From Myxococcales bacterium (GTDB lineage: Bacteria; UBA10199; 2-02-FULL-44-16; JAAZCA01), in assembly GCA_012513515.1 (NCBI GenBank), contig JAAZCA010000014.1:1268-65267 (forward strand): a stretch of 64,000 nucleotides of DNA, read 5' to 3'. Positions 9,662 to 30,860 of this stretch are shown in pieces (within the stretch, counting starts at the first letter, position 1; every line of letters begins with the position of its first letter). The position numbers and the translations under genes are program-made. Under the pieces are notes generated by a model that saw only the letters and a list, made by a program, of their open reading frames with translations, searched no databases and was not told the DNA's origin.

Positions 9662-9790
9662 CGGTCGATGGTCAAAAACCGTGCGATAATACGATAGTGC
9701 AATAGTGCGATAAAAGCATGTCATCCCCGAGTGATGAGAAGGTTGTCATCCCCGAGTGGTGTAGTCGGGGATCCAGCAATAAGCGTGACT
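9662..9790. repeat. composite intergenic repeat (GGTCGATGGTCAA, GTCATCCCCGAGTG x2, CGGGGATCC, GCGTGACTCG modules)
   Basis: It belongs to the same family. Confidence 0.75.
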
Positions 9791-9862: not shown

Positions 9863-10117
9863 ATGACCATCAAAAACTTCGTGTCGACGACGGAAGCCGC
9901 TAAAATCCTCGGAATAAGCACGGTAGCTGTCTTTAAAAAAATCAAGAATGGTCAGCTTCCAGCGCAGAGGGTCGGTAGAAATTATCTGATCGACATAAAA
10001 AACCTCGGTCTTAAAGATTCCAAGCCCAATAAAAAAACAAAAAAGCTGATCAGCGAAGCGGTGAAACGCGCGGTTTCTGAATATGGAGAAGCGTTGAAAA
10101 AACTGGGGGAAGAGTAG
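9863..10117 (+). CDS. excisionase/MerR-type helix-turn-helix DNA-binding protein, putative antitoxin
   Basis: A Xis-family HTH (AAKILGISTVAVFKKIKNGQLPAQRVGRNYLI) is preceded by an AGAGG Shine-Dalgarno, with an operator-like palindrome at 9823..9850. Its stop overlaps the start of the downstream Doc gene. Confidence 0.75.
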   Translation: MTIKNFVSTTEAAKILGISTVAVFKKIKNGQLPAQRVGRNYLIDIKNLGLKDSKPNKKTKKLISEAVKRAVSEYGEALKKLGEE

Positions 10118-10536
10118 TGCATATACTTTCTCTTCAGGAAGTTCGCGATATAGCATTCGAGCTCGCCAGAGAGAGTATGGCATGGGACGAACCTATTCCG
10201 GATTTTGACACCCGATTTCCTAACGTCCTGGAAAGCTGTCTATCGGCACCTTTTCAAACCTTTGACAAAAAAAATCTTTACAAAGGGTTGCTCGAAAAGA
10301 GCGCAATACTTTTCTATCTCATGATAAAGAATCATCCCTTTGCAAATGGCAACAAACGCATAGCGGTTACAGCTCTGCTTGTTTTCTTGGCTCTAAATGG
10401 GAAATGGTTGGAGGTAAGCAATCAGGAACTGTATAATTTTGCGGTTTGGGTGGCAAGCAGCCCGCCGCAACTCATGAACGAAACCGCTGATGCTATAGAG
10501 GGTTTTCTGACAAAAAATATCGTCTGTTACAGTTGA
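10117..10536 (+). CDS. doc: Doc/Fic-family toxin (death-on-curing type)
   Basis: It carries the exact Doc motif HPFANGNKR (HxFx[DN]GNKR). It uses a GTG start overlapping the upstream stop (TAGTG). Confidence 0.85.
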   Translation: MHILSLQEVRDIAFELARESMAWDEPIPDFDTRFPNVLESCLSAPFQTFDKKNLYKGLLEKSAILFYLMIKNHPFANGNKRIAVTALLVFLALNGKWLEVSNQELYNFAVWVASSPPQLMNETADAIEGFLTKNIVCYS

Positions 10537-10544
10537 AGGACTGG

Positions 10545-10745
10545 CAAATTGACCATGGACCATAGTGCGATAAAAGCCTGTCATCCCCGAGTGATTTTAT
10601 CGGGGATCCCGTAACGACCGTGACTGGTGGAAAAACAGAGGCTAGAGGTGAGATGTTAGAAACTAGAAAAAAACGGGCTCGTAAAAATCTCGTTTCTCAC
10701 TTCTAGATTCTAGCTTCTTGATGTCGGTCGATGGTCAATTGTCGG
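10545..10745. repeat. composite intergenic repeat plus CTAGA-type tandem-repeat hairpin (10630..10720)
   Basis: It carries the modules TTGACCATGGACCA, GTCATCCCCGAGTG, CGGGGATCCCG, CGACCGTGACTGGTG and GGTCGATGGTCAATTG. A hairpin GGCTAGAGGTGAGA...TCTCACTTCTAGATTCTAGC lies inside it. Confidence 0.75.
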
Positions 10746-10981: not shown

Positions 10982-13900
10982 ATGAAGAAAATAACCATAC
11001 TAATTCTTTCCGTGATCGCGATCGCCGCGGCCTATCCGCTTTTCGCCGCACAGGATTTTGGGTTTTCCGATCCGATACCGGTCGTCGGGGATAACCCAAA
11101 TGATCCAGGCGGGACGAGTGCTGTGAGGATGTATTTTTTCAATCATCCGGCATACACGGGGGACTCTAACTTCTCATCCTCATATGAGATCGATAAAAAA
11201 GTGAGCGATGTGATTGCAGTTCCGGGATCTGTTAGGATTGGAGAGCCTACTGCTATCTATTTACCCGCTTTTGGCTATGATAAGTCAAATATGCCGAAGT
11301 TAAAATCAACTTTAGGTTTAGGGCCTAGGAATTTGACTCTAAAGTTTGCTGAAGATAAGGAAATTACGCGTTATTTAGTGATGAGACCCTCCACCAAACC
11401 TAACCGACATGGAAGGTCAGTAGTGCTTGCAGATATCAGAAAAACGAAGTCAGGCGAATACCAATCACTTTCACTCGGAAATGACCGCCAATATATCGGC
11501 TATGCAGGCAACTATATTGCCCCATACTTGAGCGCTTCAGGGAAGAGCGATCATCCGGCATTATTTAAAAGTGCCAGCTCTGCTTACTTCAAATGGTGTT
11601 CCAGATCCAATAACATGGGTATCTACTTCGAATGTGCCGAAGAGGATACAATAGAAGAGATAGATGATATATTAGCGTACGACCTGGTTCCGCCTGTTGA
11701 TGCCTCTTTGATGATAACCCCCGTTTTTGATCCATTGCAGATACATGTGGGCGGTACAACTGCTGAACGTGGGTACTTGCTGAAAAACGGCCAAAGCACC
11801 AAGGGTTTTTATGCACTGAACGCAGCTACTACGGGTGCAGAACAACGAAAAGGCGAATTTAGAAAAGGCGAATTTAACTTTGCCTTAATTTCTCCTCTAA
11901 GTTTCTTTTACAAAGGCAACTACGACAAATATCGTTTTTTGGGGTACTCAAGTCTTCAGGACTACGTGATAGACATGACAGCGTTTCCTGAGAACAACTC
12001 ATCACTAGGGGGACTTAATCCAGAAGATTGGTTCGACTTACTCTATAAAAAGGTTGACGAACCTAAGGACTTTAGCTCAATTTTTATGTTGTATTCTTTA
12101 GGTTTAATAAATCTTCCCTATGCCACAGCTAACACTGTTTCGTCCGAGACACGTACCGCAGAATCACTACAGACGATCAGCGATATAATAGCGCCTGCCT
12201 ACATCACCAACCCATGGTTTCCGGTGGCGGCCAACCCTGTGGCAGTTGTCAGGGATTCTAGCCAGGATGTAGCTACCCTTTATTACAACACACTCTTTAG
12301 TTGGAATGATTTTTTGCTTACCCCTTATGGGCGTCCGACAATTTTCAAGGACATGGATGTTCACAGAATGAAGGAACTCGTCGGTTTTAAAAAAACAGAC
12401 GGATCCTTTACTTCTCTGGAAGACTGGTCTGGATATGAGTTCTTTTATCCGAGCAAGGTGGTAGTGCCGGTGGTGATATGGGGAGTCGGTGATGTAGATA
12501 TTGCGCAGTATGAGACATCCAATCCATCTTCGATAATTACGCCGAAAACGGTAGCTCTCGTGGATTATGGCGCCTCCAGCCACCCTGGAATTTTCAATAT
12601 GGCACATTTGCAGGACAGATCAAGAATTCCTAAAGACTATCTTCTTCTTCCCTCATCCATCGCTAACAATCGTGGCTTTGCCGGCATGATATACGTCATC
12701 GATAAAAATGACACGGAAAGCCAGCTTCATATGAAGAGTTGGAAATGGACCGAAGAACTAGGAAATGCTGACGATGTCAGAAAACGATTCGCCCTAAGGC
12801 CAAGAGAAGAAATATATACGGAAATTCCGTTCAGGGTTCCTTCCAAGGCTATTATGATTCCTCCCTATGATGGAGATCCAAACGTGGTCCCTTATCAACT
12901 TGCCACGGGAAACCTTGATGGAGATTCCTGTCAGGATATCGTGGTAAGTTATCGAAGCGCCGAGATGGTAACAGATATCCCAACTAAAAATTACACTGAC
13001 TTTCACGTATCCTATCCAAACCTGTTCAGCATCATATTCAGGAGCCCGCTCAAAGATGGTAGCTGCCCATTTTCCACTAGTGATAAATATTGGGATCCTG
13101 ATGGCATTACTGTTGTTCACAAAACTTTGCCGATTTTGGGTGGGAATACGGCCGGCAATGCCGCTGTTTCAGCGGTTTCAATAGGCAATTTCGTGGGAGA
13201 ACTTGGAAATAAAAAAAGAAACGATATAGCCGTCGGAAACCTAAATCTCGAGAAGGACGCCGATGGCAATTTTGCCGGCTTTGTCTACGTCTTTGCGAAT
13301 TCGGAAGATGACATTGATCGTACAACCGGAAAGCCGATCTTTAGTTCGCCAAACACAGGATATGACCCAACTACGGGCATTGGCGCCATCAGAATTAAGG
13401 CCGGTTTTAAATCTCATCCCGATAGCACAGATAAGTGGGGCGTGGGTTATTTGACGACTGACAGCGTTAGTGTTGAAGAATACGACAACATAGGTGCCAT
13501 AAGCGGACTTCCGCTGATCCTCCCATCCCTGGCATGTCCAGTAAGCGGCAGCGATACAACCAGGGCAGTTAGCGTCCATGAAGGAATGCTCGCCACCCTA
13601 TATGCGAGAATGAGTGAAAGCATAGGATGTGATGAGATAATATCAGCTAACGAAAATAATTTAAACCAAAGCTCATGCATGGACTCCACTCATAAAATGG
13701 AATACCCTTTTCAAAAATTCGGCATGCCATTGCCTCAGCGCTGTGCGCCCAGAGAAGGGGTATGTGGAGCTGGTCTTGTTGAAGAAGCAACTAATTACAA
13801 ACTTCCGTTGTGGAGTGATATAGATTGCCCAACCCAATGCTCAAAATGGGAAAATCTATGCTTACTTAGCCAGATGGACCAAAATCTTACGTCATCTTCA

Positions 13901-16285
13901 GAACCTTATATGGGGCTTGGCGGAAATTTTTGTATGGTAAGAGATGACATTCATGGCCAACCTCTTAATCCAATGGCTTACCTTTGTATGCAGCAGCTAA
14001 ATGCTGTGCGCGAGCCGGTGAATAAGCAAGACAGCTTTGCGTATTTAACCGACTTAGGCGGCATTGCCGATGGATCGCAGACGGAAAATGCATTCTATTA
14101 TTTTGCGCCACTATTTCCGCCCGATGAAGAAACAAGTCTTAGTGTATATTCTACACTTTTTACTGGAAATAATCGCTATGCGCCAATTACGTTTATGGAC
14201 AATTTGGTCAATGCGAGCAATGCTTGGACGTTCTATCTGCCATCTACGGCAAGTGCCCAGTATAATCCCACTTACCCAGAGCGTGTGCAACCGTTCCCAA
14301 GTGGCGCAGCCGGATGTTCCCTCTTACCTCCTTCTCAGCAGAACGTAGTCAGCCAGGATAGAGAGATGTCCGTGCCATTTGCATATGATTTTCTCGATCC
14401 AAAGATGCCGCTGGAGGATAACCCCCTGTTCAATAAAATAAGCCCTCCGAGCGGCTCTCAGGCCGAGACAACCTACTATCCCTCGACTATAGATTATAAA
14501 AAAATCCCCCTTATAAAGGGGCGTGAGATGCCGGGACCTAGGGAGATGACCGTGATACTGGGGGCCGCTGCGCCATGCGGCAATGGATCTGTAGATGTGT
14601 ATCTTGGCGAGCAATGCGATCCTATTGCTGACGACCCAAGTTCCTCATGTAAGAGCTTGGGATTTGGAGATTCGAGCTCATGCAATGCAAATTGCATGTG
14701 TAGCGGATGTGGTGATGGTACGGTGGATTCGAATGCGGGAGAGGAATGCGATCTGGGTTCAGAGAATTTTTCAGATACCGATCGTGACGGATGTCGAACC
14801 GGATGCAAGTTGCACTCATGCGGTGATGAAGTGGTTGATTCCGACGAGCAGTGCGAAGGAAATCAGACGCAGGAAGGGTCACACTGCGATCCTGACAAAT
14901 GCCAGTGGGTTTCAAATACCTGCGGAGATGGGATCTTTTCACAGGACGCGACTTACAGCGAAGAATGTGATTACTCAGCCGGTGAAGAGGGCGCCTGCAA
15001 AACTGCTGGTTTTGAATGTAGCCAAAGTTGCATATGTGAACCTATTTGCGGCGACAATATCGTAGCAGGCGCTGAGGTTTGCGATGGTACCGCCGGCTGT
15101 CAGTCAGGATACACCTGTAACGAAGAATGCAGCGTATGCGAAAAGGTGCCGGTCTGCGGCGATGGAACTGTCGACCCCGGGGAAACCTGCGGAGAGCTGG
15201 GGCTTTCATGTGCTGAAGGTTTTGAATGCATCGCCCAAGGGCAACCTAATGCCTGCACATGTACGCCGGTGCCGGACTCGTTTTCATCCGACTGCGAGGT
15301 GAAGTGCGTAAGCTTCGCAGACGAAGCGGAGAAGCTCTATTACGATTCACTTAACGAGACCTATTTCCGCGCTCCATCGGGAAGAAAGGACGATTTCTTC
15401 TGCCCGAACAACTCCGTCATCCAGATGTCCTGCCTTGTCGCAGATGCTGCATTCAACGGATCCGTCGGCCCTTGGATGATGGTCCAGAGCAAGGGAATGG
15501 TGCTGCATGACATGGCCAAGATCACATCATCGGATTTTCCGTTCGATGTCGTAGCCCCGCAGAGCCCGATTCGAATCGCTCCTCTCGCATCCTCCGCGAG
15601 CTCCGGCGGAAAAGCCGCTGCGGTCGTCCTCCCGAACCTGGCCTCGATTCGAGGGAATCTGGAGTTTTCAACCAGCGGAGTCTCGCCGATGGCGGCGACA
15701 TCTGTGATGGAAAGCACGGCCGGCATAATGACGATCAACAACATGATAGAGCATCGTGCAGTCGCTCTAATGCCTTCGAGTTCAAAATCGCAGTCGAGGG
15801 ATGCTGGCAAGGCTGCTGCGGCCCCTGCCGTACATTACACGAGGCTTCGGGCCTATCCGGAACCGACCCACACTACGATAGAGAGCTGGCCGAAGGATCT
15901 CGATCCTGAGAAGCTCTATGTCGAGAATCGGCTGAAACCGGATTATGTCAGGAGCATAATTGAAACTCGTAAAAAGGAAGGGGCAAAGGGAACCCGCGAT
16001 ATCGCCCTGGGAATTTCTGACGATGTCGGCATATACGAGATGTCGATATTGCAGGAGACCTATGGTGAAAAGAGCAGCGGCACTACGGCGGTCAACTATT
16101 CATTCTATGCTGGGCCCGTATCTTCGATCTCCGAAGGGGGCGCAGGATGCGGAAAGTGCTCGATATCCGAGAATTCTGGCTTCAATGCCAGGGCCGCCAC
16201 ACCTATATTGCTGGCAGTGCTGTTGTCGGCACTCGCCCTTGGCGCAGTAAGGGTGAGGGTTAGCGTGAGGTCGAAAAGGAAGTAG
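10982..16285 (+). CDS. giant secreted/cell-surface protein (1767 aa) with FG-GAP-like repeats, Myxococcus-type CGDG cysteine-rich repeats and a C-terminal sorting-like anchor
   Basis: It has a GGAGG Shine-Dalgarno and an N-terminal signal peptide (MKKITILILSVIAIAAAYPLFAAQ). Five CGDG...EECD repeats fall at residues ~1230-1400, FG-GAP-like segments (GNFVGELGNKKRNDIAVGNLN) are present, and the protein ends GAGCGKCS...PILLAVLLSALALGAVRVRVSVRSKRK. A terminator hairpin follows at 16309..16357. Confidence 0.85.
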   Translation: MKKITILILSVIAIAAAYPLFAAQDFGFSDPIPVVGDNPNDPGGTSAVRMYFFNHPAYTGDSNFSSSYEIDKKVSDVIAVPGSVRIGEPTAIYLPAFGYDKSNMPKLKSTLGLGPRNLTLKFAEDKEITRYLVMRPSTKPNRHGRSVVLADIRKTKSGEYQSLSLGNDRQYIGYAGNYIAPYLSASGKSDHPALFKSASSAYFKWCSRSNNMGIYFECAEEDTIEEIDDILAYDLVPPVDASLMITPVFDPLQIHVGGTTAERGYLLKNGQSTKGFYALNAATTGAEQRKGEFRKGEFNFALISPLSFFYKGNYDKYRFLGYSSLQDYVIDMTAFPENNSSLGGLNPEDWFDLLYKKVDEPKDFSSIFMLYSLGLINLPYATANTVSSETRTAESLQTISDIIAPAYITNPWFPVAANPVAVVRDSSQDVATLYYNTLFSWNDFLLTPYGRPTIFKDMDVHRMKELVGFKKTDGSFTSLEDWSGYEFFYPSKVVVPVVIWGVGDVDIAQYETSNPSSIITPKTVALVDYGASSHPGIFNMAHLQDRSRIPKDYLLLPSSIANNRGFAGMIYVIDKNDTESQLHMKSWKWTEELGNADDVRKRFALRPREEIYTEIPFRVPSKAIMIPPYDGDPNVVPYQLATGNLDGDSCQDIVVSYRSAEMVTDIPTKNYTDFHVSYPNLFSIIFRSPLKDGSCPFSTSDKYWDPDGITVVHKTLPILGGNTAGNAAVSAVSIGNFVGELGNKKRNDIAVGNLNLEKDADGNFAGFVYVFANSEDDIDRTTGKPIFSSPNTGYDPTTGIGAIRIKAGFKSHPDSTDKWGVGYLTTDSVSVEEYDNIGAISGLPLILPSLACPVSGSDTTRAVSVHEGMLATLYARMSESIGCDEIISANENNLNQSSCMDSTHKMEYPFQKFGMPLPQRCAPREGVCGAGLVEEATNYKLPLWSDIDCPTQCSKWENLCLLSQMDQNLTSSSEPYMGLGGNFCMVRDDIHGQPLNPMAYLCMQQLNAVREPVNKQDSFAYLTDLGGIADGSQTENAFYYFAPLFPPDEETSLSVYSTLFTGNNRYAPITFMDNLVNASNAWTFYLPSTASAQYNPTYPERVQPFPSGAAGCSLLPPSQQNVVSQDREMSVPFAYDFLDPKMPLEDNPLFNKISPPSGSQAETTYYPSTIDYKKIPLIKGREMPGPREMTVILGAAAPCGNGSVDVYLGEQCDPIADDPSSSCKSLGFGDSSSCNANCMCSGCGDGTVDSNAGEECDLGSENFSDTDRDGCRTGCKLHSCGDEVVDSDEQCEGNQTQEGSHCDPDKCQWVSNTCGDGIFSQDATYSEECDYSAGEEGACKTAGFECSQSCICEPICGDNIVAGAEVCDGTAGCQSGYTCNEECSVCEKVPVCGDGTVDPGETCGELGLSCAEGFECIAQGQPNACTCTPVPDSFSSDCEVKCVSFADEAEKLYYDSLNETYFRAPSGRKDDFFCPNNSVIQMSCLVADAAFNGSVGPWMMVQSKGMVLHDMAKITSSDFPFDVVAPQSPIRIAPLASSASSGGKAAAVVLPNLASIRGNLEFSTSGVSPMAATSVMESTAGIMTINNMIEHRAVALMPSSSKSQSRDAGKAAAAPAVHYTRLRAYPEPTHTTIESWPKDLDPEKLYVENRLKPDYVRSIIETRKKEGAKGTRDIALGISDDVGIYEMSILQETYGEKSSGTTAVNYSFYAGPVSSISEGGAGCGKCSISENSGFNARAATPILLAVLLSALALGAVRVRVSVRSKRK

Positions 16286-16372: not shown

Positions 16373-16560
16373 TCGACCATGGACAATTGGCCTCTGTTTT
16401 TTCCAGTCACGGCTGTTGCTGGAGGGGGTCGAATCCTGATCGCTGATCCCTGATCTTTGATCAGCATTTTGTAAGATTAGCTTATATTCGAAAACATCCT
16501 TATTAAGATTAAGATCAGGATCAAGATTAAGATGAAGATTAAGATTAAGAGGAAGATTAA
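16373..16560. repeat. composite repeat: CGACCATGGACAATTGGCC module + ~105-bp MITE-like element (copy A) + (AAGATT)n hexamer tract
   Basis: The 105-bp core is nearly identical to 17343..17447, with 2 mismatches. Confidence 0.8.
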
Positions 16561-16911
16561 TCAAAATATCGGATTAAATTTTTTCATATTGATGATCATA
16601 GCATAAGCCCTGCGAAGCAGCGTTTTTAGTTCTTCCTGATACTTGGCGGATATATATCCATAAGCCGATAGGATATCGATGATCGAGGCGACCTCGGCTA
16701 TTGAGCCTGGGGAGATATCGAAAAACCGATTTCTGTCTTTTTGGGACTTTCTGCCATTTCCTTCCGCTAAGTTAAGCAGGGTGCTGGAAAGGGCTCGTTT
16801 AAGCTGATCCTCCAGATAGTAATTTCCCCTTGGAAGAGATCCTATTAGCTCTGGCATTCTTTTTGCGACCGAAAGCAAAAGTCCGTAGCAGTTAAGCCGC
16901 TGATGATTCAT
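16561..16911 (-). CDS. four-helix-bundle protein (TIGR02436-like, '23S rRNA intervening-sequence protein' family)
   Basis: It is 116 aa and starts MNHQRLNCYGLLLSVAKRMPELIG...NLAEGNGR. A GGAGG Shine-Dalgarno precedes it, and a paralog is encoded divergently. Confidence 0.8.
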   Translation of the reverse strand: MNHQRLNCYGLLLSVAKRMPELIGSLPRGNYYLEDQLKRALSSTLLNLAEGNGRKSQKDRNRFFDISPGSIAEVASIIDILSAYGYISAKYQEELKTLLRRAYAMIINMKKFNPIF

Positions 16912-16926
16912 TTAAAACCTCCTCCT

Positions 16927-16984
16927 TGTGATTTTAATTTCAAAACCTCCCGACCGGCTGAGAGGTTTTGAAATTAAAATCACA
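16927..16984. promoter_or_regulatory. perfect 23-bp inverted repeat (TGTGATTTTAATTTCAAAACCTC - 12 nt - GAGGTTTTGAAATTAAAATCACA) between the divergent four-helix-bundle genes
   Basis: Both arms were read directly from the sequence. The element sits between the two Shine-Dalgarno sequences. Confidence 0.8.
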
Positions 16985-16996
16985 GATGGAGGGGTT

Positions 16997-17332
16997 ATGT
17001 TCGGACATCAGCGGCTTTACTGCTACAATCTTTGCCTTGGGGTGGCAAAAAGGATGCCAGAGCTAATCGGATCATGGCCATCGGGGTCAGGATATCTCGT
17101 GGATCAGCTTAAACGGGCCCTTTCGAGCGTTATACTGAATATCGCTGAAGGAAATGGTAGAAAGTCGATAAAGGAGAGAAGACGGTTTTTCGATATCGCG
17201 ATAGGTTCTGCTGCCGAAGTATCCTCTATCTTCGATGTCGCCAGAGCTTATGGATATATCACCGAGCCAGTCTATGAGGAGCTTCAGTCGGAGCTGCTTC
17301 AGGTGGTGAGGATGCTATACAAGCTGAAGTAA
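16997..17332 (+). CDS. four-helix-bundle protein (TIGR02436-like), paralog of 16561..16911
   Basis: MFGHQRLYCYNLCLGVAKRMPELIG...NIAEGNGR is roughly 60% identical to its neighbour by eye. A GGAGGGG Shine-Dalgarno precedes it. The ORF-track start at 16928 lies inside the palindrome, so the start was reset to the ATG at 16997. Confidence 0.8.
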   Translation: MFGHQRLYCYNLCLGVAKRMPELIGSWPSGSGYLVDQLKRALSSVILNIAEGNGRKSIKERRRFFDIAIGSAAEVSSIFDVARAYGYITEPVYEELQSELLQVVRMLYKLK

Positions 17333-17337
17333 TCCTC

Positions 17338-17552
17338 GAATCCTGATCCCTAATCCCTGATCTTTGATCAGCATTTTGTAAGATTAGCTTATATTCGAAA
17401 ACATCCTTATTAAGATTAAGATCAGGATCAAGATTAAGATTCGGGGATGACACCATGAATGTCATTCCCGCATGCTGTAAGCCGCCGCTAACGCGGGGCA
17501 AACGGGAATCCCTTGCCAATCGTTCAGCAGTTACGAGTCACCAGTCACAGCT
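17338..17552. repeat. composite repeat: ~105-bp MITE-like element (copy B) + CGGGGATGAC / GTCATTCCCGC / AAGCCGCCGCTAACGCGGGG / CACCAGTCAC modules
   Basis: It is a direct repeat of 16426..16530. Confidence 0.8.
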
Positions 17553-17643: not shown

Positions 17644-18966
17644 ATGGCGAAAGTACGAGTCGTGTTGGTTCTTGCAGTGGCGGTTTTTGCGGCCGTCCTC
17701 TTTATCTCAAAAGCGGTCGAAGCGGGACACAGCCCGGATGTGGTGACCTTCAACCCGGTCACGGATGGCGGAAAGTACAACGTCATCCACCAGTCGAAAA
17801 CCTTGCCACAGTGGGGATTCAACGTCGGAATGACCTTCGATTATGCCTACGAGCCGTATGAAAAAGCCACCGCCGCCGGAACGAGGATAATCGGGATAGT
17901 TGACGACCTCATGATGACCAACGTCCACGGGGCTATCGGCTGGACCGACTGGTGGTCGATGGGCGCAAATCTTCCTGTCGCGATTTGGCAAACCTGGTTT
18001 GATCCAAACCTTCCCATTGCCACCGTGCAAAAGGAGAACAAATACGGAAAACTCGGCGATGCGCGCCTCGAGATGAAATTTCGCCTTCTCGACATCGAAA
18101 GACACCACGTCGGCTTGGCGCTGGTTCCCTATATGTATTTTCCAACCGGACATTGGCAGACCTATCTCGGCAACGATATGTGGAGCCCCGGCGGAACTCT
18201 GGTTTTCGATGCCGATATAAAGAACCGCGTCTTTCTCTCTCTGAACGTCGGTTACAGGATGTATAAATATGTCCGTTACGATACGACAAACCCGAATGCG
18301 TTTCTTGATGACACCCTCAGCATGGGGGGAGGGATAAATGTCAGAATCAATGACACCTGGGCAATCACCGGTGAGGCATGGAGCGAGTCAGTCATAAAAT
18401 CCCTCTTCAAGAACCAGCTTCAGAATCCCTCGGAGTTTTTGGTCGGGACCAAAATCACTCCGCAAGGTGCGGCGAAGGGGTTGGGAATCACAGTCGGCGG
18501 AGGAAGGGCGATCACTACCGGCATAGGCGATCCTGATTTTCGCGTCCTGGTCGGCGTAAACTATCGCTACGATCGTGAGCCGCCGCCGCCGCCGCCAGTT
18601 GAAGTTGAAGCAGCGGTAGAAGAAAAGATCATCATCACCCAGAAGATTCACTTCGAGTTCAACAAGGCCGTCATAAGGCCAGTTTCTTATCCAATTCTCG
18701 ACGATGTCGTGATGTTGCTGCAGCAGAATCCGCAGCTGGGGCTTATCCGTGTTGAAGGCCACACCGACTGGATCGGGAACGATGCCTACAACCAGCGGCT
18801 GTCGGAAAAGAGGGCGAACTCCGTCCGCGAGTATCTGATCAGCAAGGGGATAGAGCCGTACAGGCTTCAGGCTGTCGGATATGGCGAGTCCAGGCCGATC
18901 GCCGACAACAATACCACAAAGGGGCGCGCCCGCAATAGGCGAACGGAATTTACGGTCGTGCAGTAA
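17644..18966 (+). CDS. OmpA-family outer-membrane protein (N-terminal beta-barrel, poly-Pro linker, C-terminal OmpA peptidoglycan-binding domain)
   Basis: It has a signal peptide, a PPPPPPVEVEAAVEE linker and a C-terminal OmpA_C domain (NQRLSEKRANSVREYL ... NRRTEFTVV). Confidence 0.85.
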   Translation: MAKVRVVLVLAVAVFAAVLFISKAVEAGHSPDVVTFNPVTDGGKYNVIHQSKTLPQWGFNVGMTFDYAYEPYEKATAAGTRIIGIVDDLMMTNVHGAIGWTDWWSMGANLPVAIWQTWFDPNLPIATVQKENKYGKLGDARLEMKFRLLDIERHHVGLALVPYMYFPTGHWQTYLGNDMWSPGGTLVFDADIKNRVFLSLNVGYRMYKYVRYDTTNPNAFLDDTLSMGGGINVRINDTWAITGEAWSESVIKSLFKNQLQNPSEFLVGTKITPQGAAKGLGITVGGGRAITTGIGDPDFRVLVGVNYRYDREPPPPPPVEVEAAVEEKIIITQKIHFEFNKAVIRPVSYPILDDVVMLLQQNPQLGLIRVEGHTDWIGNDAYNQRLSEKRANSVREYLISKGIEPYRLQAVGYGESRPIADNNTTKGRARNRRTEFTVVQ

Positions 18967-18987: not shown

Positions 18988-19136
18988 TCGACCATGGACA
19001 ATTGACCTCTGTTTTTCCCAGTCACGCTTGTTACGGGATCCCCGATAGAACCATTCGGGGATGACGACCTTTTCGACACTCGGGGATGACAATCACGCCG
19101 TCATTCCCGCGGTTTTAAGCCGCCGCTAACGCGGGG
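18988..19136. repeat. composite intergenic repeat (CGACCATGGACAATTGACCTCTGTTTTTCCCAGTCACG + GGGATCCCCGAT + CGGGGATGAC x2 + GTCATTCCCGCGG + AAGCCGCCGCTAACGCGGGG)
   Basis: It belongs to the same family. Confidence 0.8.
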
Positions 19137-21572: not shown

Positions 21573-23033
21573 ATGAGCGAACAAGTTCAAATCTATCTTA
21601 ATAACCAAATATCTAAAATACCTGCGTTTTTAGACGCTTATCTCCATGATCGCAGCGGTAAATTATATGCAAAACGCCATCTTTTTGACCGTGTAATGAG
21701 CCGTGTGAACAATTTTCTACAAAATCGTTCTGAGGTGAGATTTATTGGCATTTCAGGGCTTAGAGGGGTTGGCAAGACCACCTTGCTCGCTCAACTGTCT
21801 AAAGAAATTATCTCAAAATACCCAAAGGATTTTCTTTATTTGACGATGGATGAGGTGACAGGAGTCCTTCAGAGCGATTTGTTGGAAGTTCTAACGGAAT
21901 ATGAAAAAATTATAGGTTGTTCTTTCGAAGAAATTAAACGGCCTGTTTTTATTTTTATTGATGAAGTTCATTTTGATGAAAAATGGACGCTGGCATTGAA
22001 AACTATTTACGATAAATCTAAACATATATTTGTTATATGTACAGGCTCGTCCGCGCTTTCTTTGCGCGCGACTCCAGATCTTGCAAGAAGAATCTTATTT
22101 GAAAAACTTTATCCGATGAAATTTTCAGAATATATTTTTCTTAAAAATCACGACGATATTGTTTTAAATCAAAAAAAGTTAAATGGTAGTGTGTCAAACG
22201 ACTTGAGCGCAAAGATTGTTCAGGCTTTGTTGTACAGTCCAAGCGGAAAATCTTGTTATGAATCTTTTTTGAAGCTTGAAAAGGATATTAAAGAGTTTTG
22301 GTATGGGTTGAACGCTTTGGAAATGGAAAGATTCCTAAAATTTGGCAATCTGCCTTTTGCATTAAAAGAAACAGAGGAATTCGATTGTTTAAAATTGATT
22401 TTAGAAATTATCGACAGGATTGTTGAAAAGGATATTCCAGCACTAGGAAAGTTTAAAATTGAAACTTTGTCTCGAGCAAAAAATATTCTTTTAATGTTGG
22501 CTTCCGGTGACGAAACTAGTTTTACGAGTTTTGCCAAAAGTTTAAATAATATTTCAATAATCACTCTTCAAGATTTGTTTGATGCGTTTGAAAAAGCTGA
22601 GATTTTGTTTCGTGTTTATCCCTATGGTTCGGCTTTTAAAAAGGTGAGAAAGCCGTCCAAGTATCTCTTTATGTCTCCATCCCTTCGTTATGCATTGCTT
22701 AGTGTCGTAGAGGGGCGCAATGCTTATTTAACCCATAAAGGAAAATATTTGGAAGATGTTGTGTGTATGACATTAATTTCAAGCGCTGAGGATATTATTG
22801 TGAAATCCCTTTTTTACGATAGCTCAAAAGGTGGCGCTGATTTTATTATAAAAATTGGAGATAAAAAAATTGTATTAGAGGTCGGTTTTGGGGAAAAAGG
22901 TAATGATCAAATTTTATATACGATGAGAAGGACGAAGGCGAATTATGGGGTTTTAATATCAGAAACAGAATTAAATTTTGATAGTGAGAACAATATCGTA
23001 AAAATACCGCTGCAAACGTTTTTAAGCATATAA
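21573..23033 (+). CDS. AAA+ superfamily ATPase (COG1373-like, DUF4143 C-terminal domain)
   Basis: It has the Walker A GISGLRGVGKTTLL and the Walker B FIFIDEVH. The gene and its upstream region are markedly AT-rich compared with the flanking DNA. Confidence 0.8.
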   Translation: MSEQVQIYLNNQISKIPAFLDAYLHDRSGKLYAKRHLFDRVMSRVNNFLQNRSEVRFIGISGLRGVGKTTLLAQLSKEIISKYPKDFLYLTMDEVTGVLQSDLLEVLTEYEKIIGCSFEEIKRPVFIFIDEVHFDEKWTLALKTIYDKSKHIFVICTGSSALSLRATPDLARRILFEKLYPMKFSEYIFLKNHDDIVLNQKKLNGSVSNDLSAKIVQALLYSPSGKSCYESFLKLEKDIKEFWYGLNALEMERFLKFGNLPFALKETEEFDCLKLILEIIDRIVEKDIPALGKFKIETLSRAKNILLMLASGDETSFTSFAKSLNNISIITLQDLFDAFEKAEILFRVYPYGSAFKKVRKPSKYLFMSPSLRYALLSVVEGRNAYLTHKGKYLEDVVCMTLISSAEDIIVKSLFYDSSKGGADFIIKIGDKKIVLEVGFGEKGNDQILYTMRRTKANYGVLISETELNFDSENNIVKIPLQTFLSI

Positions 23034-23040
23034 TTTGAAC

Positions 23041-23165
23041 AGCCGTGACTGGTGAGACAAGAAGGTCGTCATCACCGAATGGTTCTATCGGGGATCCCGC
23101 AACGACCGTGACTTGTGACTAGTGACTCGTAACTGGTGAACGGTTGGAACGGGATCCCGCAACAA
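23041..23165. repeat. composite intergenic repeat (AGCCGTGACTGGTGA, GTCATCACCGA, CGGGGATCCCGCAACGACCGTGACT, GTAACTGGTGAACGGTTGGAAC, GGGATCCCGC)
   Basis: It belongs to the same family. Confidence 0.78.
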
Positions 23166-23185
23166 CAGTAGTGAGTGATACGCAT

Positions 23186-24052
23186 ATGAATAAACTAACG
23201 CACACACGACTTCCCGAATGGCTCAAGAATCGCTGTGGAAATGTCGCATCGACTCATGATTTGAAATCGCGCCTGCGAAAAAGAGGGCTCCGTACCGTAT
23301 GCGAAGCTGCCAAATGCCCCAATATTGGAGAATGCTTCGAGCGTGGGACGGCGACATTCATGATAATGGGCGATCTCTGCACGAGAAACTGCAGGTTTTG
23401 CAATGTAAAGCATGGGCTGCCGCAGCCTCTCGATCGGGAGGAACCTGTGCGGGTTGCTGCGGAAATTTCAGAACTAAAACTTCGTCATGCGGTGATCACA
23501 TCGGTCACGCGCGATGACCTTCCGGACGGCGGAGCAGCGCACTTTCGCAAAACTATCGAGGCCATCCGTTCGCATTCTCCTAAAACTACTATAGAAGTTC
23601 TCACACCAGATTTCGAGGGGCGTGAAAAGGAGATATCCGAGGTTTGTTCCGCTGCTCCGCAGATATTCAACCACAATATTGAAACCGTAGAGCGCCTCAC
23701 GCCATCCATAAGAAGCATGGCAAGCTACCGAAGGTCGCTCTCCGTCCTTGAATTCGCAAAGAGGAATTATCCTGACATTCTGGTGAAGAGCGGAATCATC
23801 GTAGGTCTTGGTGAACGCCGGGAGGAAATACTTGAGACTCTAGCCGATCTGAAAACGCTTGGCTGCGATATAGTCACAATCGGCCAGTATTTGAGGCCTT
23901 CCAGGAAAGCGATTGCTGTCCACGAATATCTCGAACCGGAATATTTTACAAAACTGGAAGAAGATGGCAAAAAGCTCGGGTTTAAATATATATTTGCGGG
24001 TCCTCTGGTGAGAAGTTCATATATGGCGGAAATGGTTTTAAAGGAGTTCTAA
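23186..24052 (+). CDS. lipA: lipoyl synthase
   Basis: It has both Fe-S cysteine clusters (CEAAKCPNIGEC and CTRNCRFC). The start was reset to the ATG at 23186 because the ORF-track start at 23144 lies inside a repeat element. Confidence 0.9.
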   Translation: MNKLTHTRLPEWLKNRCGNVASTHDLKSRLRKRGLRTVCEAAKCPNIGECFERGTATFMIMGDLCTRNCRFCNVKHGLPQPLDREEPVRVAAEISELKLRHAVITSVTRDDLPDGGAAHFRKTIEAIRSHSPKTTIEVLTPDFEGREKEISEVCSAAPQIFNHNIETVERLTPSIRSMASYRRSLSVLEFAKRNYPDILVKSGIIVGLGERREEILETLADLKTLGCDIVTIGQYLRPSRKAIAVHEYLEPEYFTKLEEDGKKLGFKYIFAGPLVRSSYMAEMVLKEF

Positions 24053-24494: not shown

Positions 24495-24570
24495 CTCACC
24501 AGTCACGGCTGTTACGGGATCCCCGATAAAAGCACTCGGGGATGACACCATGAATGTCATTCCCGCATGC
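24495..24570. repeat. composite intergenic repeat between convergent genes (CACCAGTCACGG, GGGATCCCCGAT, CACTCGGGGATGAC, GTCATTCCCGC)
   Basis: It belongs to the same family. Confidence 0.78.
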
Positions 24571-24571
24571 T

Positions 24572-26650
24572 TTATACTTCTTTCCCAGGGCTGAGCTCCT
24601 TGGCATATCTCCCAAGTGCCAGAAGAGGAAAGTAGTGGCGGTATCCGTGATATCTGATGTAGAAATGCCTCTCGAATCCGGTCCCCGTATAATGCTTCTC
24701 ATCCCATCCGCCCTCTGCATTGCGGTTGTTCAGAAGCCAGGCAGCCCCGCGACTTGCGGCCTTTCCCTTGGCGCGACCGCCGGCAATCAGCCCCATGAGG
24801 GCCCAGGCAGTCTGCGATGGGAGGCTGACGTTATAGCCGGAAAACTCTTTGACATCCTCGTATGTAATAGGGGATTCACTCCAGCCCCCATCTGCCCTTT
24901 GGATTGACTCCAGCCAATTCAGGGCCTTCACTATGCGCTCATCGGATGGATCTACGCCGATAGCGGAAAGGCCCATAAGTACATTCCAGGTCCCGTAGAT
25001 GTAATTTACGCCCCATCTGCCGAACCATGCGCCGAAGGGTTTCTGGCGGTTCCAGATGAACTCTATTGCGCGGGCGACGCGAGGGTCATCCTTCGTATAA
25101 CCTTTTGTGACAAGGTACTCGAGCATCCTTCCGGTGATATCCGGGGTCGAGGGGTCGAGGCATGCCTTGTGGTCCGAAAAGGGTATTCGATTGACGAGCT
25201 GCTGATTCTGGTTGATATCGAAGGCCCCCCAGCCGCCATCCTTGCATTGCATGGAGAGCATCCAGTCTATGCCAACGGCAACCGCCTCAGATTTTTCCTC
25301 CTCCGGAATAGCTGTCCTGTCTATGGCCGTGAGGACCTCTATCGTGTCATCGACGTCAGGAAAATAGTCATTCTCAAATTCGAAGGACCACCCGCCTGGT
25401 TTTGCAAGGGGGTTTTTGATCTTCCAGTCGCCTTTTACTGTTCTTATCTGTTTCCCTATGAGCCATCTGGCTGCCTTGAGAAGGGCGGGGTGGTCAGGAG
25501 GGAGTCCCGTCTCGAGAAGCGCCATCATCATCCATGGCGTATCCCATACCGGCGATATGCAGCACTGCTGATGTATCCTATTTCCGTCGCTTTTGGAAAC
25601 AAATGGGTCCTTGCCAATCTCACGAATTTTCGACGGGCGTGCTGCAGGGGTGTCGCGAATTTCATCCGGAAGCGCAGGTATTTCAGCTGTCGCATAACGC
25701 TGTTGAAACATTTTTAGCGCCTGGAAGGGCTTTCTTATCTGCGGCGAATCGTTGTGATATCCGATGGCTTTGAATGCAAGGGCACAGTAAGCCAGCGCGG
25801 GATATATGTCCTCGGTCCTCTTTACATGCTCCCATGTCCATTCAGAACACTTTGAAATCGCATACTTACGTAGTGGACTAATAGGTATTTTGTTAAGGAT
25901 CTTTAAAGCTTTATCTGTGATTAGGAACATATTTTCAATAGAGATAAGGCCTTTTTCATGCTTAAACCGAAACTTTCTCTGTTCAGGTTTATCTCTAAAG
26001 AGCTCGTCTAATGTTATGTTATTAGGAGCTTTTTTATTTTTTTTCAGCGTCATGAAAATTAGCAGAGGCACGATCGTAGCGCGCGCCCAGCTGGAGAACT
26101 CGTATATGTTAAATGGTATCCAGTTCGGCATCAGTATAAACCATGCCGGCATCTCAGGGCATGCCGACCACGGGATGATGCCGAACATGGCAAGGTGTAT
26201 CTTTGTGAAAACACGACATTCCTCTATTCCGCCATTTTTGACGATGTATTGTCTGGCTTTGACCATATTTTCATCATCGGCCGGGACGCCGGCTATGCGC
26301 AATGCGAAATAAGACTCGATCGTCGTGGAGAGATCGGGAGGGCCATCGTGATAGATAGCCCAGGTTCCATCTGAACGCTGGACATCGAGGATTCGGTTTT
26401 TGATTCCTTCCTGAATTTCAGCATCGACCTCGCCGAGATAGTGCATGAGGTATATAAACTCCGCTCCGATCGTCTCGTTGGCCTCAAGGGAATACCACCA
26501 GTATCCATCCTGGCGCTGCTGGGAAAGAAATCGTTCGACGGTGGGGGCGAGTGAGGAGAGCAGCCCATCCCGCGTAAGCTCTTTAGCGTCAGCGGGTGTC
26601 GGTTCGAGATCCCTTGAAATGCTCTCTTTTATAGCTGCGTTATCCTTCAT
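24572..26650 (-). CDS. shc: squalene-hopene cyclase
   Basis: It has QW repeats (QRQDGYWW, DGGWG, DGGW) and the DVDDT catalytic motif (FPDVDDTIEV). The start ATG at 26650 follows a GGAGG Shine-Dalgarno, whereas the ORF-track start at 26665 is a TTG. Confidence 0.9.
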   Translation of the reverse strand: MKDNAAIKESISRDLEPTPADAKELTRDGLLSSLAPTVERFLSQQRQDGYWWYSLEANETIGAEFIYLMHYLGEVDAEIQEGIKNRILDVQRSDGTWAIYHDGPPDLSTTIESYFALRIAGVPADDENMVKARQYIVKNGGIEECRVFTKIHLAMFGIIPWSACPEMPAWFILMPNWIPFNIYEFSSWARATIVPLLIFMTLKKNKKAPNNITLDELFRDKPEQRKFRFKHEKGLISIENMFLITDKALKILNKIPISPLRKYAISKCSEWTWEHVKRTEDIYPALAYCALAFKAIGYHNDSPQIRKPFQALKMFQQRYATAEIPALPDEIRDTPAARPSKIREIGKDPFVSKSDGNRIHQQCCISPVWDTPWMMMALLETGLPPDHPALLKAARWLIGKQIRTVKGDWKIKNPLAKPGGWSFEFENDYFPDVDDTIEVLTAIDRTAIPEEEKSEAVAVGIDWMLSMQCKDGGWGAFDINQNQQLVNRIPFSDHKACLDPSTPDITGRMLEYLVTKGYTKDDPRVARAIEFIWNRQKPFGAWFGRWGVNYIYGTWNVLMGLSAIGVDPSDERIVKALNWLESIQRADGGWSESPITYEDVKEFSGYNVSLPSQTAWALMGLIAGGRAKGKAASRGAAWLLNNRNAEGGWDEKHYTGTGFERHFYIRYHGYRHYFPLLALGRYAKELSPGKEV

Positions 26651-26731
26651 ATGACAATCCTCCAATCTCGGGGCCGAACTCCTGATATCCCCGTAAAGAC
26701 GTATAAGAAATATTATGTCTGGTAGCGCGGC

Positions 26732-30734: not shown

Positions 30735-30812
30735 TCGACCATGGACGATTGACCTCTGTTTTTCCCAGTCACGCTTGTTACGGGATCCCCGATTACACCA
30801 CTCGGGGATGAC
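30735..30812. repeat. composite intergenic repeat (CGACCATGGACGATTGACCTCTGTTTTTCCCAGTCACG + GGGATCCCCGAT + CACTCGGGGATGAC)
   Basis: It is near-identical to 18988..19060. Confidence 0.8.
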
Positions 30813-30860
30813 AAGCGCATAGTTTTTAGAGGTGCCCTGAATTTGCTGATTTCTCAGAGA

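Follow-up and report, generated by a model that had tools for sequence, protein, structure and literature searches.

A strain-variable giant secreted protein and its TraB-like neighbour form a candidate recognition locus in an uncultured myxobacteria-like lineage

TraA/TraB is the best-understood bacterial system for kin recognition and membrane sharing, and all descriptions of it come from cultured Myxococcales. TraA is a protein of about 700 amino acids. Its N-terminal domain is polymorphic and is followed by a Cys-rich stalk and a C-terminal MYXO-CTERM signal, and a conserved partner, TraB, is encoded downstream; TraB does not set specificity, and traA alleles are shuffled by transfer and recombination (PMC3325183, PMC6372800). 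In Myxococcus xanthus, the myxosortase MrtX acts on dozens of MYXO-CTERM substrates genome-wide, its cleavage requires Cys residues, and cleavage is needed for surface anchoring (PMC11980579). MYXO-CTERM signals are short, divergent and lineage-specific, with lineage variants that escape single hidden Markov models (HMMs), and Pro is listed as absent from them (Haft, bioRxiv 10.1101/2023.06.07.544157). Here we analyse a 64-kb stretch of contig JAAZCA010000014.1 (the window), in which the gene for a secreted protein of 1767 residues (the giant protein) is followed by a homologue of traB (Table 1). By analogy with TraA, we lean towards reading the giant protein as a surface-displayed polymorphic adhesin or recognition receptor that would be anchored through a MYXO-CTERM-type tail and would act with the TraB-like protein. 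The component kinds are known (an FG-GAP propeller, myxo-type Cys repeats, a MYXO-CTERM-like tail and a TraB homologue); what appears to be new is that they come together in a giant receptor at a syntenic locus, that the tail has a divergent form and that a 3.7-kb cassette is exchangeable.

The conserved neighbour of the giant gene is a TraB homologue. The best NCBIfam match of its product is NF033763 exchanger_TraB (‘outer membrane exchange protein TraB’), with 172.4 bits. When the N-terminal 325 residues were searched alone, residues 24–304 aligned to TraB positions 13–291 (E = 4.8e-18), with nothing else meaningful among 18,950 NCBIfam models, and the OmpA domain of the protein matched its Pfam model with E = 1.8e-24. 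The corresponding neighbours in two other lineages, L012 and L013, also match TraB through their N-domains (E = 1.8e-20 and 2.5e-18, respectively), and an OmpA-family gene follows the giant gene in every locus of this kind with downstream sequence. Neither the TraB-like neighbour nor the strain-level hypervariability of the giant gene described below was part of the first-pass annotation of the window.

The two genes sit in a conserved chromosomal slot with the order FtsH ... TsaE, dihydrolipoyl dehydrogenase-like, aspartokinase, giant gene, OmpA-family gene, RecG and lipoyl synthase. We found the full order in L011/L012, L013/L014 and L010, and L009 and L016 match it up to the contig end. At least six lineages have a giant gene after aspartokinase, the slot occupants being only 23–25% identical to the giant protein of the window. 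The GC content of the giant gene in those lineages is uniform and equal to that of the flanks, from 38% to 64%, which argues that the family has been vertically inherited there. Relative to the L013 lineage, identity to the window is 65% for aspartokinase, 72% for RecG, 67% for the TraB-like protein and 24% for the giant protein. Relative to strain L004, the corresponding values are 94.6%, 96.6%, 99.8% and, over residues 1–981 of the giant protein, 39–48%.

The giant protein itself belongs to a rare uncharacterised family from an uncultured lineage labelled Myxococcales or Proteobacteria by NCBI. An exhaustive HMMER search with residues 24–1200 against 1.84 billion representative proteins returned only 19 matches, three of which are fragments of close alleles, the others being 1300–2200 residues long. 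Seventeen sequences align end to end at 23–29% identity with invariant Cys residues. They have in common the motifs FSxPIxIGGD after the signal peptide, GNLDGDxCxDxxVTWRG, INGxPLMLPxIGCP and KLPxGxxMPGxRExT, as well as Cys-rich repeats, a conserved C-terminal module (the C-module; DCxVxC, GRxDD and NNMIxHR) and a tail of the form GxGCxC-hydrophobic-RRRxRK. The family is not represented in Pfam, NCBIfam or PDB, and the family profile found no match among PDB sequences; in the literature searched, DUF4215, the name attached to the protein by NCBI, is mentioned only in a diatom context. Word-index searches with the whole protein and its C-terminal part retrieved only the giant protein itself and two orthologue fragments. 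A profile scan of genome contigs with a narrowed alignment, among GTDB representatives that do not include the genome of the window, added two distant loci. One candidate for a free-standing C-module gene, P0003, was rejected because its frame runs into Cys repeats off the contig end. The closest full-length relative, P0006 (L015 2611–9270; 2219 residues, 31% identity), has many more Cys repeats and a single-Cys tail. It lies outside the aspartokinase/TraB slot, following a VWA-domain gene and preceding a MerR/HTH (helix–turn–helix) gene, so the family is not strictly tied to the slot.

The 1767-residue open reading frame (ORF) of the first-pass annotation was confirmed. An identical product is encoded in two independent metagenome assemblies (one MEGAHIT and one SPAdes contig) and in one metagenome-assembled genome (MAG) at NCBI (NLD27716.1, ‘DUF4215 domain-containing protein [Myxococcales bacterium]’), and because the same protein recurs in independent assemblies the gene is real and no assembly chimera. 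Its architecture runs from a signal peptide and a beta-rich N-terminal part through an FG-GAP-type propeller and a Cys-rich acidic stalk to the C-module and a GCxC/transmembrane (TM)/basic tail. The signal peptide claimed earlier was borne out by eye and by hydropathy, and it is kept across the family: the protein starts with MKK followed by ITILILSVIAIAAAYPLFA and AQ, with the cleavage context AYPLFA/AQ and the look of a type I signal peptide. The first 400 residues gave a poor structural model (predicted local distance difference test, pLDDT, 54) without a significant structural match. The central region is predicted to fold as a beta-propeller, with its longest structural alignments to integrin alpha chains in a fold comparison, and it resembles integrin-alpha/FG-GAP (VCBS-type) proteins in its DxDxDG-type motifs and predicted propeller. 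Both FG-GAP-like strings quoted in the first-pass annotation are present, at residues 641–655 and 735–755, and the predicted fold agrees with them, but the Pfam FG-GAP score (18.5 bits, E = 1.9e-3, residues 637–657) lies below the gathering score of 22.1. Among the 17 family members, FG-GAP matches nine (E <= 0.01, best 7.4e-7) and FG-GAP_3 matches five.

The stalk shows the Myxococcus-type pattern that had been claimed as at least five CGDG repeats. A regular expression finds six CG[DN]x units, starting at residues 1199, 1243, 1280, 1314, 1356 and 1392, but the corresponding models stay under their cut-offs on the giant protein (DUF4215, 22.3 bits, E = 1.7e-4, cut-off 27 bits; TIGR02232 on the repeat region, 9.6 bits, E = 0.78, cut-off 20.8). 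Four of the 17 family members are matched by TIGR02232, with a best E of 4e-7. In fact, no curated HMM in Pfam or NCBIfam reaches its cut-off on the giant protein; those that miss include TIGR02232, TIGR03901 and FG-GAP, which the first-pass annotation had proposed as checks. The C-module, about 280 residues long, is 83–97% identical in orthologue fragments, has a host-like composition (G+C content at third codon positions, GC3, 0.60–0.64) and has no relative in Pfam, NCBIfam or PDB. Scans for promoters and terminators did no better than shuffled sequence.

Codons 57–1279 of the giant gene form a strain-specific cassette, bordered on one side by the conserved segment with the signal peptide and on the other by the Cys repeats. 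This became apparent from L004, a syntenic contig from another metagenome whose flanking housekeeping genes are 91–97% identical to those of the window. Over the first 100 nt of the giant gene and the sequence immediately before it, the two are 97–100% identical. For the flanks of the cassette, DNA identity between strains is 94–100%, against about 50% inside it. Identity drops abruptly at 11150 to about 0.4–0.6 and stays there to about 14800; it climbs from 0.6 to 0.9 through the Cys repeats (14782–15181) and is 0.89–1.0 from 15082, with 100% identity over 15282–15681. A third allele, L005–L007, was recovered in at least two assemblies and has 77% DNA identity to the L004 version. Homology detected by blastn to both L004 and L005/L007 stops exactly at 11149, which places the 5′ recombination boundary at 11149/11150; the 3′ end of the cassette lies within the Cys-repeat region. 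Exchanged between these ends are the beta-rich N-terminal part, the propeller and a Cys cluster, as well as Cys repeats one and two. The divergence spans 3.7 kb, includes indels and is not adenine-specific. Because at least three alternative cassettes have the same 5′ boundary, we infer that alleles were exchanged repeatedly, as opposed to a single fusion.

Base composition follows the same division. GC3 is 0.41–0.50 in codons 1–1400 and 0.60–0.64 afterwards, compared with 0.59–0.66 in neighbouring housekeeping genes, and the L004 cassette is also AT-rich (GC 0.46). The AT-rich 5′ part had been put at 2.5 kb and taken to suggest a mosaic origin. Synonymous sites confirm the shift, but it extends over about 3.8 kb, and although the gene is a compositional mosaic, the conserved slot and the native composition of its relatives speak against a one-off fusion: what is AT-rich is a cassette that is specific to the strain and can be exchanged. 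Amid this variable sequence, a 59-nt island (14504–14562) encoding IPLIKGREMPGPREMTVILG retains 88% nucleotide identity. No other stretch of the cassette is conserved both from allele to allele and throughout the family. The island directly precedes the first Cys repeat and might serve for processing or docking.

Three alleles were recovered in all, of which only that of the window is intact. The L004 allele is broken into four ORFs by one stop and two frame changes (L004 10001–15076), breaks that could be sequencing error given the low coverage (3–5x) of the alternative alleles. L005–L007 have a frameshift in common near codon 205, at the non-homopolymer site GATCCGATCTC (L005 1277–2502). Further profile scans of metagenome contigs yielded one 1.4-kb fragment and no added alleles.

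The layout of this locus matches that of TraA/TraB, a match that is analogous, not homologous. As in TraA, a signal peptide and a polymorphic head are followed by a Cys-rich stalk and a Cys-containing sorting-type tail, and a conserved downstream gene encodes a TraB-type N-domain, here together with an OmpA domain. In both systems the polymorphism lies in the head, with the C-terminal part and the partner conserved, and in both allele exchange through recombination is suggested. The giant receptor differs in its size (1767 residues), in having an FG-GAP-type propeller head where TraA has a PA14 domain, in its DUF4215/TIGR02232-like repeats where those of TraA are TIGR04201, in an extra C-module of 280 residues before the tail, and in the deeper divergence of its alleles, with about 40% amino acid identity over 1200 residues. 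A second comparison is with the giant surface proteins of flexible genomic islands, which are likewise very large, secreted, radically different between near-identical strains and AT-richer than the genome. Unlike those, the locus described here is fixed and syntenic lineage-wide, the internal cassette alone is exchanged between conserved ends, and a conserved TraB-like partner accompanies the giant gene.

The C-terminal tail is best read as a putative divergent sorting signal of the MYXO-CTERM type. The tripartite layout claimed earlier is there (GCGKC, helix and RVRVSVRSKRK), although the helix has 15 residues, not 17. GGAGCGKCS occupies residues 1719–1727, with GCGKC at 1722–1726, 41 residues from the protein end, and the helix, ILLAVLLSALALGAV, occupies residues 1742–1756 and contains neither charge nor Pro. 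In the alignment of 17 tails, C1726 is invariant, C1723 is present in 16 and the preceding Gly is near-invariant. We built a tail HMM from 15 family tails, leaving out those of the window and its orthologue; it gave the window tail 21.1 bits, a score reached by none of 2000 full shuffles and one of 2000 part-preserving shuffles. In an orthologue with an 83–84% identical C-module, 46 of 49 tail residues are identical. The tail resembles MYXO-CTERM (TIGR03901.2; myxosortases MrtX, MrtC and MrtP) in lying at the extreme C terminus, in its Gly/Cys signature, TM helix and basic cluster (bioRxiv 10.1101/2023.06.07.544157; PMC11980579), in having two close Cys residues, one of them invariant, and in co-occurring with Myxococcus-type Cys repeats. 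Applied to the family tails, TIGR03901.2 (cut-off 20 bits) passed P0020 (28.0 bits), with P0017 and P0007 at 12.2 and 7.7 bits; among the 17 full-length members it matches one. When the family-tail profile was run against 5.8 billion proteins, the only outside matches were P0024 and P0025, short fragments with unrelated upstream sequence. Both pass TIGR03901.2 (30.2 and 26.5 bits) and TIGR03382, and are thus bona fide MYXO-CTERM proteins. The resemblance to MYXO-CTERM noted in the first-pass annotation is therefore upheld by the family tails, P0020 and P0024/P0025, but not by a match of the window tail itself; we read that tail as a divergent variant because single HMMs overlook lineage variants (Haft). 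Among the ORFs of the window with at least three TM segments, besides the giant gene, are only a Na/H exchanger, an MscS channel and a methyl-accepting chemotaxis protein (MCP), so the statement that the window encodes no sorting enzyme holds. To our knowledge, mrtX is not adjacent to traA in M. xanthus. The absence of a nearby enzyme, which had been pointed out, is unremarkable and uninformative, because MrtX is a general enzyme that serves dozens of substrates genome-wide (PMC11980579), and linkage of a sorting enzyme to a MYXO-CTERM protein is not expected.

Together, these features are consistent with the following model. The giant protein would be exported by Sec, form its disulfides in the periplasm and be held transiently in the inner membrane by its C-terminal helix. 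Following the working model for MrtX (PMC11980579), the invariant tail Cys would be lipidated and an unlinked CPBP-type myxosortase would cut the tail, so that the protein would end up displayed on the cell surface. There the Cys-rich stalk and the C-module may hold out the polymorphic propeller-containing head, and this head may work alongside the conserved TraB-like OmpA protein as an adhesin or recognition receptor specific to the strain. New specificities would arise by whole-cassette replacement through homologous recombination anchored in the conserved ends. A bolder extension, which we consider rather unlikely as it stands and offer tentatively, is that this uncultured, apparently anaerobic (digester-associated) myxobacteria-like lineage has TraAB-type recognition and outer-membrane exchange that use a non-homologous propeller receptor of 1400–2200 residues and a lineage-specific MYXO-CTERM variant, with specificity reset by the 3.7-kb cassette swap. 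If so, this would be a second, independently built class of ‘greenbeard’ receptor paired with TraB; the TraB module would work with other receptor types, here a larger polymorphic one, social recognition of the TraA/TraB kind would extend to uncultured lineages, and specificity evolving by whole-domain cassette exchange would have a natural case. The divergent tail, overlooked by current MYXO-CTERM models, is relevant to the annotation of surface proteomes in MAGs.

Several observations weigh against a receptor that is anchored in the MYXO-CTERM manner and works with TraB, and some of them also favour its main rival. That rival is a generic hypervariable adhesin or protein of the phage-receptor type, its head diversified by phage or predator pressure, with the TraB-like gene a chance OmpA neighbour and no kin recognition or exchange; we regard it as possible but the less probable account. 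Neither the giant protein nor its 17 relatives match TraA, PA14 or TIGR04201 in Pfam and NCBIfam. The TraB match is remote, 172.4 bits against a curated 700, that of a distant homologue and not an equivalog, and the genes, unlike the overlapping traAB pair, lie 1.36 kb apart in the window with a minus-strand gene between them. The lack of TraA homology and the remoteness of the TraB match speak for the rival, and so do the extreme strain-level divergence within conserved flanks and the housekeeping neighbours. Two of the three recovered alleles are broken, and decay or dispensability could thus account for some of the divergence; inactivation is expected if receptor loss is sometimes favoured, and on this point the rival fits at least as well. 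Against the rival, the giant and TraB-like genes remain adjacent across lineages of 38% to 65% GC, the N-domain of the neighbour matches TraB alone among all the NCBIfam models, and the architecture mirrors that of TraA in its polymorphic head, Cys-rich stalk and Cys-bearing tail. As to anchoring, the two accounts are compatible, and even if the protein is an adhesin or phage receptor the locus would clearly exemplify extreme polymorphism within a population at one fixed site of the chromosome. The assignment to myxobacteria-like organisms is itself a matter of NCBI labels only.

The remaining objections concern the tail, and with them comes the simpler proposal that the helix is a plain anchor, holding a periplasmic protein in the inner membrane with no sorting or cleavage, the Cys residues being incidental or structural. 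TIGR03901.2 has no match on the whole giant protein or its 73-residue tail even at E <= 10, nor do other C-terminal sorting models at that threshold on the giant protein. MYXO-CTERM has GCGC where the window tail has GCGKC. The window tail has a longer (14–15 residues) and charged spacer from Cys to helix, unlike MYXO-CTERM; its basic cluster, RVRVSVRSKRK, is interspersed, and most family tails have Pro in the hydrophobic stretch. The family-tail profile yielded no further substrates from this organism among the 5.8 billion proteins, a second tail-bearing ORF was found neither in the window (about 64 kb of the genome) nor in about 200 kb of related loci, and a regular-expression and TM screen of the same window and related loci gave no CPBP-motif ORF. 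The missing model matches, sorting enzyme and companion substrates would suit a plain anchor, which we nevertheless hold to be improbable, since an invariant and a near-invariant Cys precede the helix in a family otherwise only about 25% identical, the tail is better conserved than the C-module before it, a tail from the family scores above the MYXO-CTERM cut-off, bona fide MYXO-CTERM proteins are retrieved with the family-tail profile and part-preserving shuffles almost never reach the tail score. Two further proposals address the variability and not the anchoring, and both are less likely than the adhesin or phage-receptor account. A single horizontal-transfer fusion of a foreign AT-rich 5′ fragment to a native 3′ part would explain the GC3 step from about 0.45 to about 0.62 inside the gene, and AT-rich repeat-flanked insertions (the Doc and intervening-sequence pairs described below) do occur in the surrounding 9.5–17.5 kb. 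It is very unlikely, because relatives in other lineages have the whole architecture at the same locus with uniform native composition, the AT-rich part is homologous throughout to their N-terminal parts, and there are at least three alternative cassettes with a common 5′ boundary. Least credible of all is a diversity-generating retroelement (DGR) as the driver of variability. Avd proteins of DGRs belong to the four-helix-bundle TIGR02436/PF05635 superfamily, and two genes of that superfamily lie downstream of the giant gene, at 16561–17332. The idea was rejected when a repeat search found no template/variable repeat pair involving the giant gene; in addition, the 3.7-kb divergence with its indels is not adenine-specific, no reverse transcriptase was seen among the ORFs scanned (a subset of those in the window), and the gene pair is a repeat-flanked insertion that is located elsewhere in L011.

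Table 1 Features of the giant-gene locus, in window coordinates
Feature	Position	Strand	Basis
Excisionase-type HTH/Doc toxin–antitoxin pair, AT-rich	9863..10536	+	Pfam, NCBIfam; ~90-nt flanking direct repeats
Giant-protein gene (intact allele ‘A’)	10982..16285	+	ORF, 1767 aa; same product in independent assemblies
Conserved 5′ segment, codons 1–56, common to three alleles	10982..11149	+	blastn, three-way alignment
Signal peptide, type I, without lipobox Cys, aa 1–23 (MKKITILILSVIAIAAAYPLFA/AQ)	10982..11050	+	hydropathy, inspection
Strain-specific hypervariable cassette, codons 57–1279, AT-rich	11150..14818	+	blastn, identity profile, GC3
Predicted beta-propeller domain, ~aa 415–855	12224..13546	+	predicted fold; contains FG-GAP-like motifs ATGNLDGDSCQDIVV (12902–12946) and GNFVGELGNKKRNDIAVGNLN (13184–13246)
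Conserved motif IPLIKGREMPGPREMTVILG, consensus KLPxGxxMPGxRExT, aa 1175–1194	14504..14563	+	blastn island, family alignment
Cys-rich acidic repeat region, six CG[DN]x...E.CD units, aa 1199–1427	14576..15262	+	regular expression; DUF4215/TIGR02232-like
Conserved C-terminal module (C-module), aa 1438–1715	15293..16126	+	family alignment; motifs DCxVxC..F, GRxDD, NNMIxHR
Tripartite tail: GGAGCGKCS, 14-aa spacer, TM helix ILLAVLLSALALGAV, basic RVRVSVRSKRK	16136..16282	+	motif coordinates, tail HMM
Lineage-specific insertion with two four-helix-bundle genes (23S rRNA intervening-sequence protein, IVP/TIGR02436)	16429..17440	.	Pfam, NCBIfam, repeats
IVP gene pair, inverted duplicates	16561–16911 and 16928–17332	- and +	arms 74–84% complementary
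TraB-like outer-membrane protein: signal peptide, TraB-type N-domain, C-terminal OmpA peptidoglycan-binding domain	17644..18966	+	NF033763, Pfam, synteny

The region around the giant gene also contains insertions and repeats. The HTH/Doc pair upstream, which L011, L013 and L016 lack, counts as inserted when compared with L011/L013 and probably lies outside the giant-gene system. Downstream, the IVP pair lies between direct repeats of 105 nt with 98% identity, and it is missing at this position in L011–L014, where the gap is 154–451 bp. A similar divergent IVP pair is found at another place in L011 (21422–22179), which suggests a mobile two-gene cassette. Rfam microRNA matches on the IVP inverted repeat were spurious. 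An intergenic repeat with the core TGTCATCCCCGAGTG is dispersed through the first half of the window, with 12 copies between 6326 and 30813 against 0.09 expected (for example at 9719–9758, 10579–10593, 19052–19091, 24533–24547 and 30799–30813). Longer copies of 50–105 nt flank the Doc toxin–antitoxin pair and adjoin several genes. This repeat looks like an element of the repetitive extragenic palindromic or miniature inverted-repeat transposable element (REP/MITE) kind and may mark insertion sites.

Beyond the TraB-like gene, an AAA_14/DUF4143 ATPase gene (21573–23033), which also occurs in L004, has a GC content of 0.34 and a GC3 of 0.31 in surroundings of about 0.52 GC, and because of this very low GC it was probably acquired horizontally. 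Genes for a squalene-hopene cyclase, a lipoyl-synthase-like radical SAM protein and a polyketide-cyclase-like protein follow RecG in all syntenic relatives (window 24572–26665 and 23144–24052), so gene order in this uncultured lineage is conserved over a long block.

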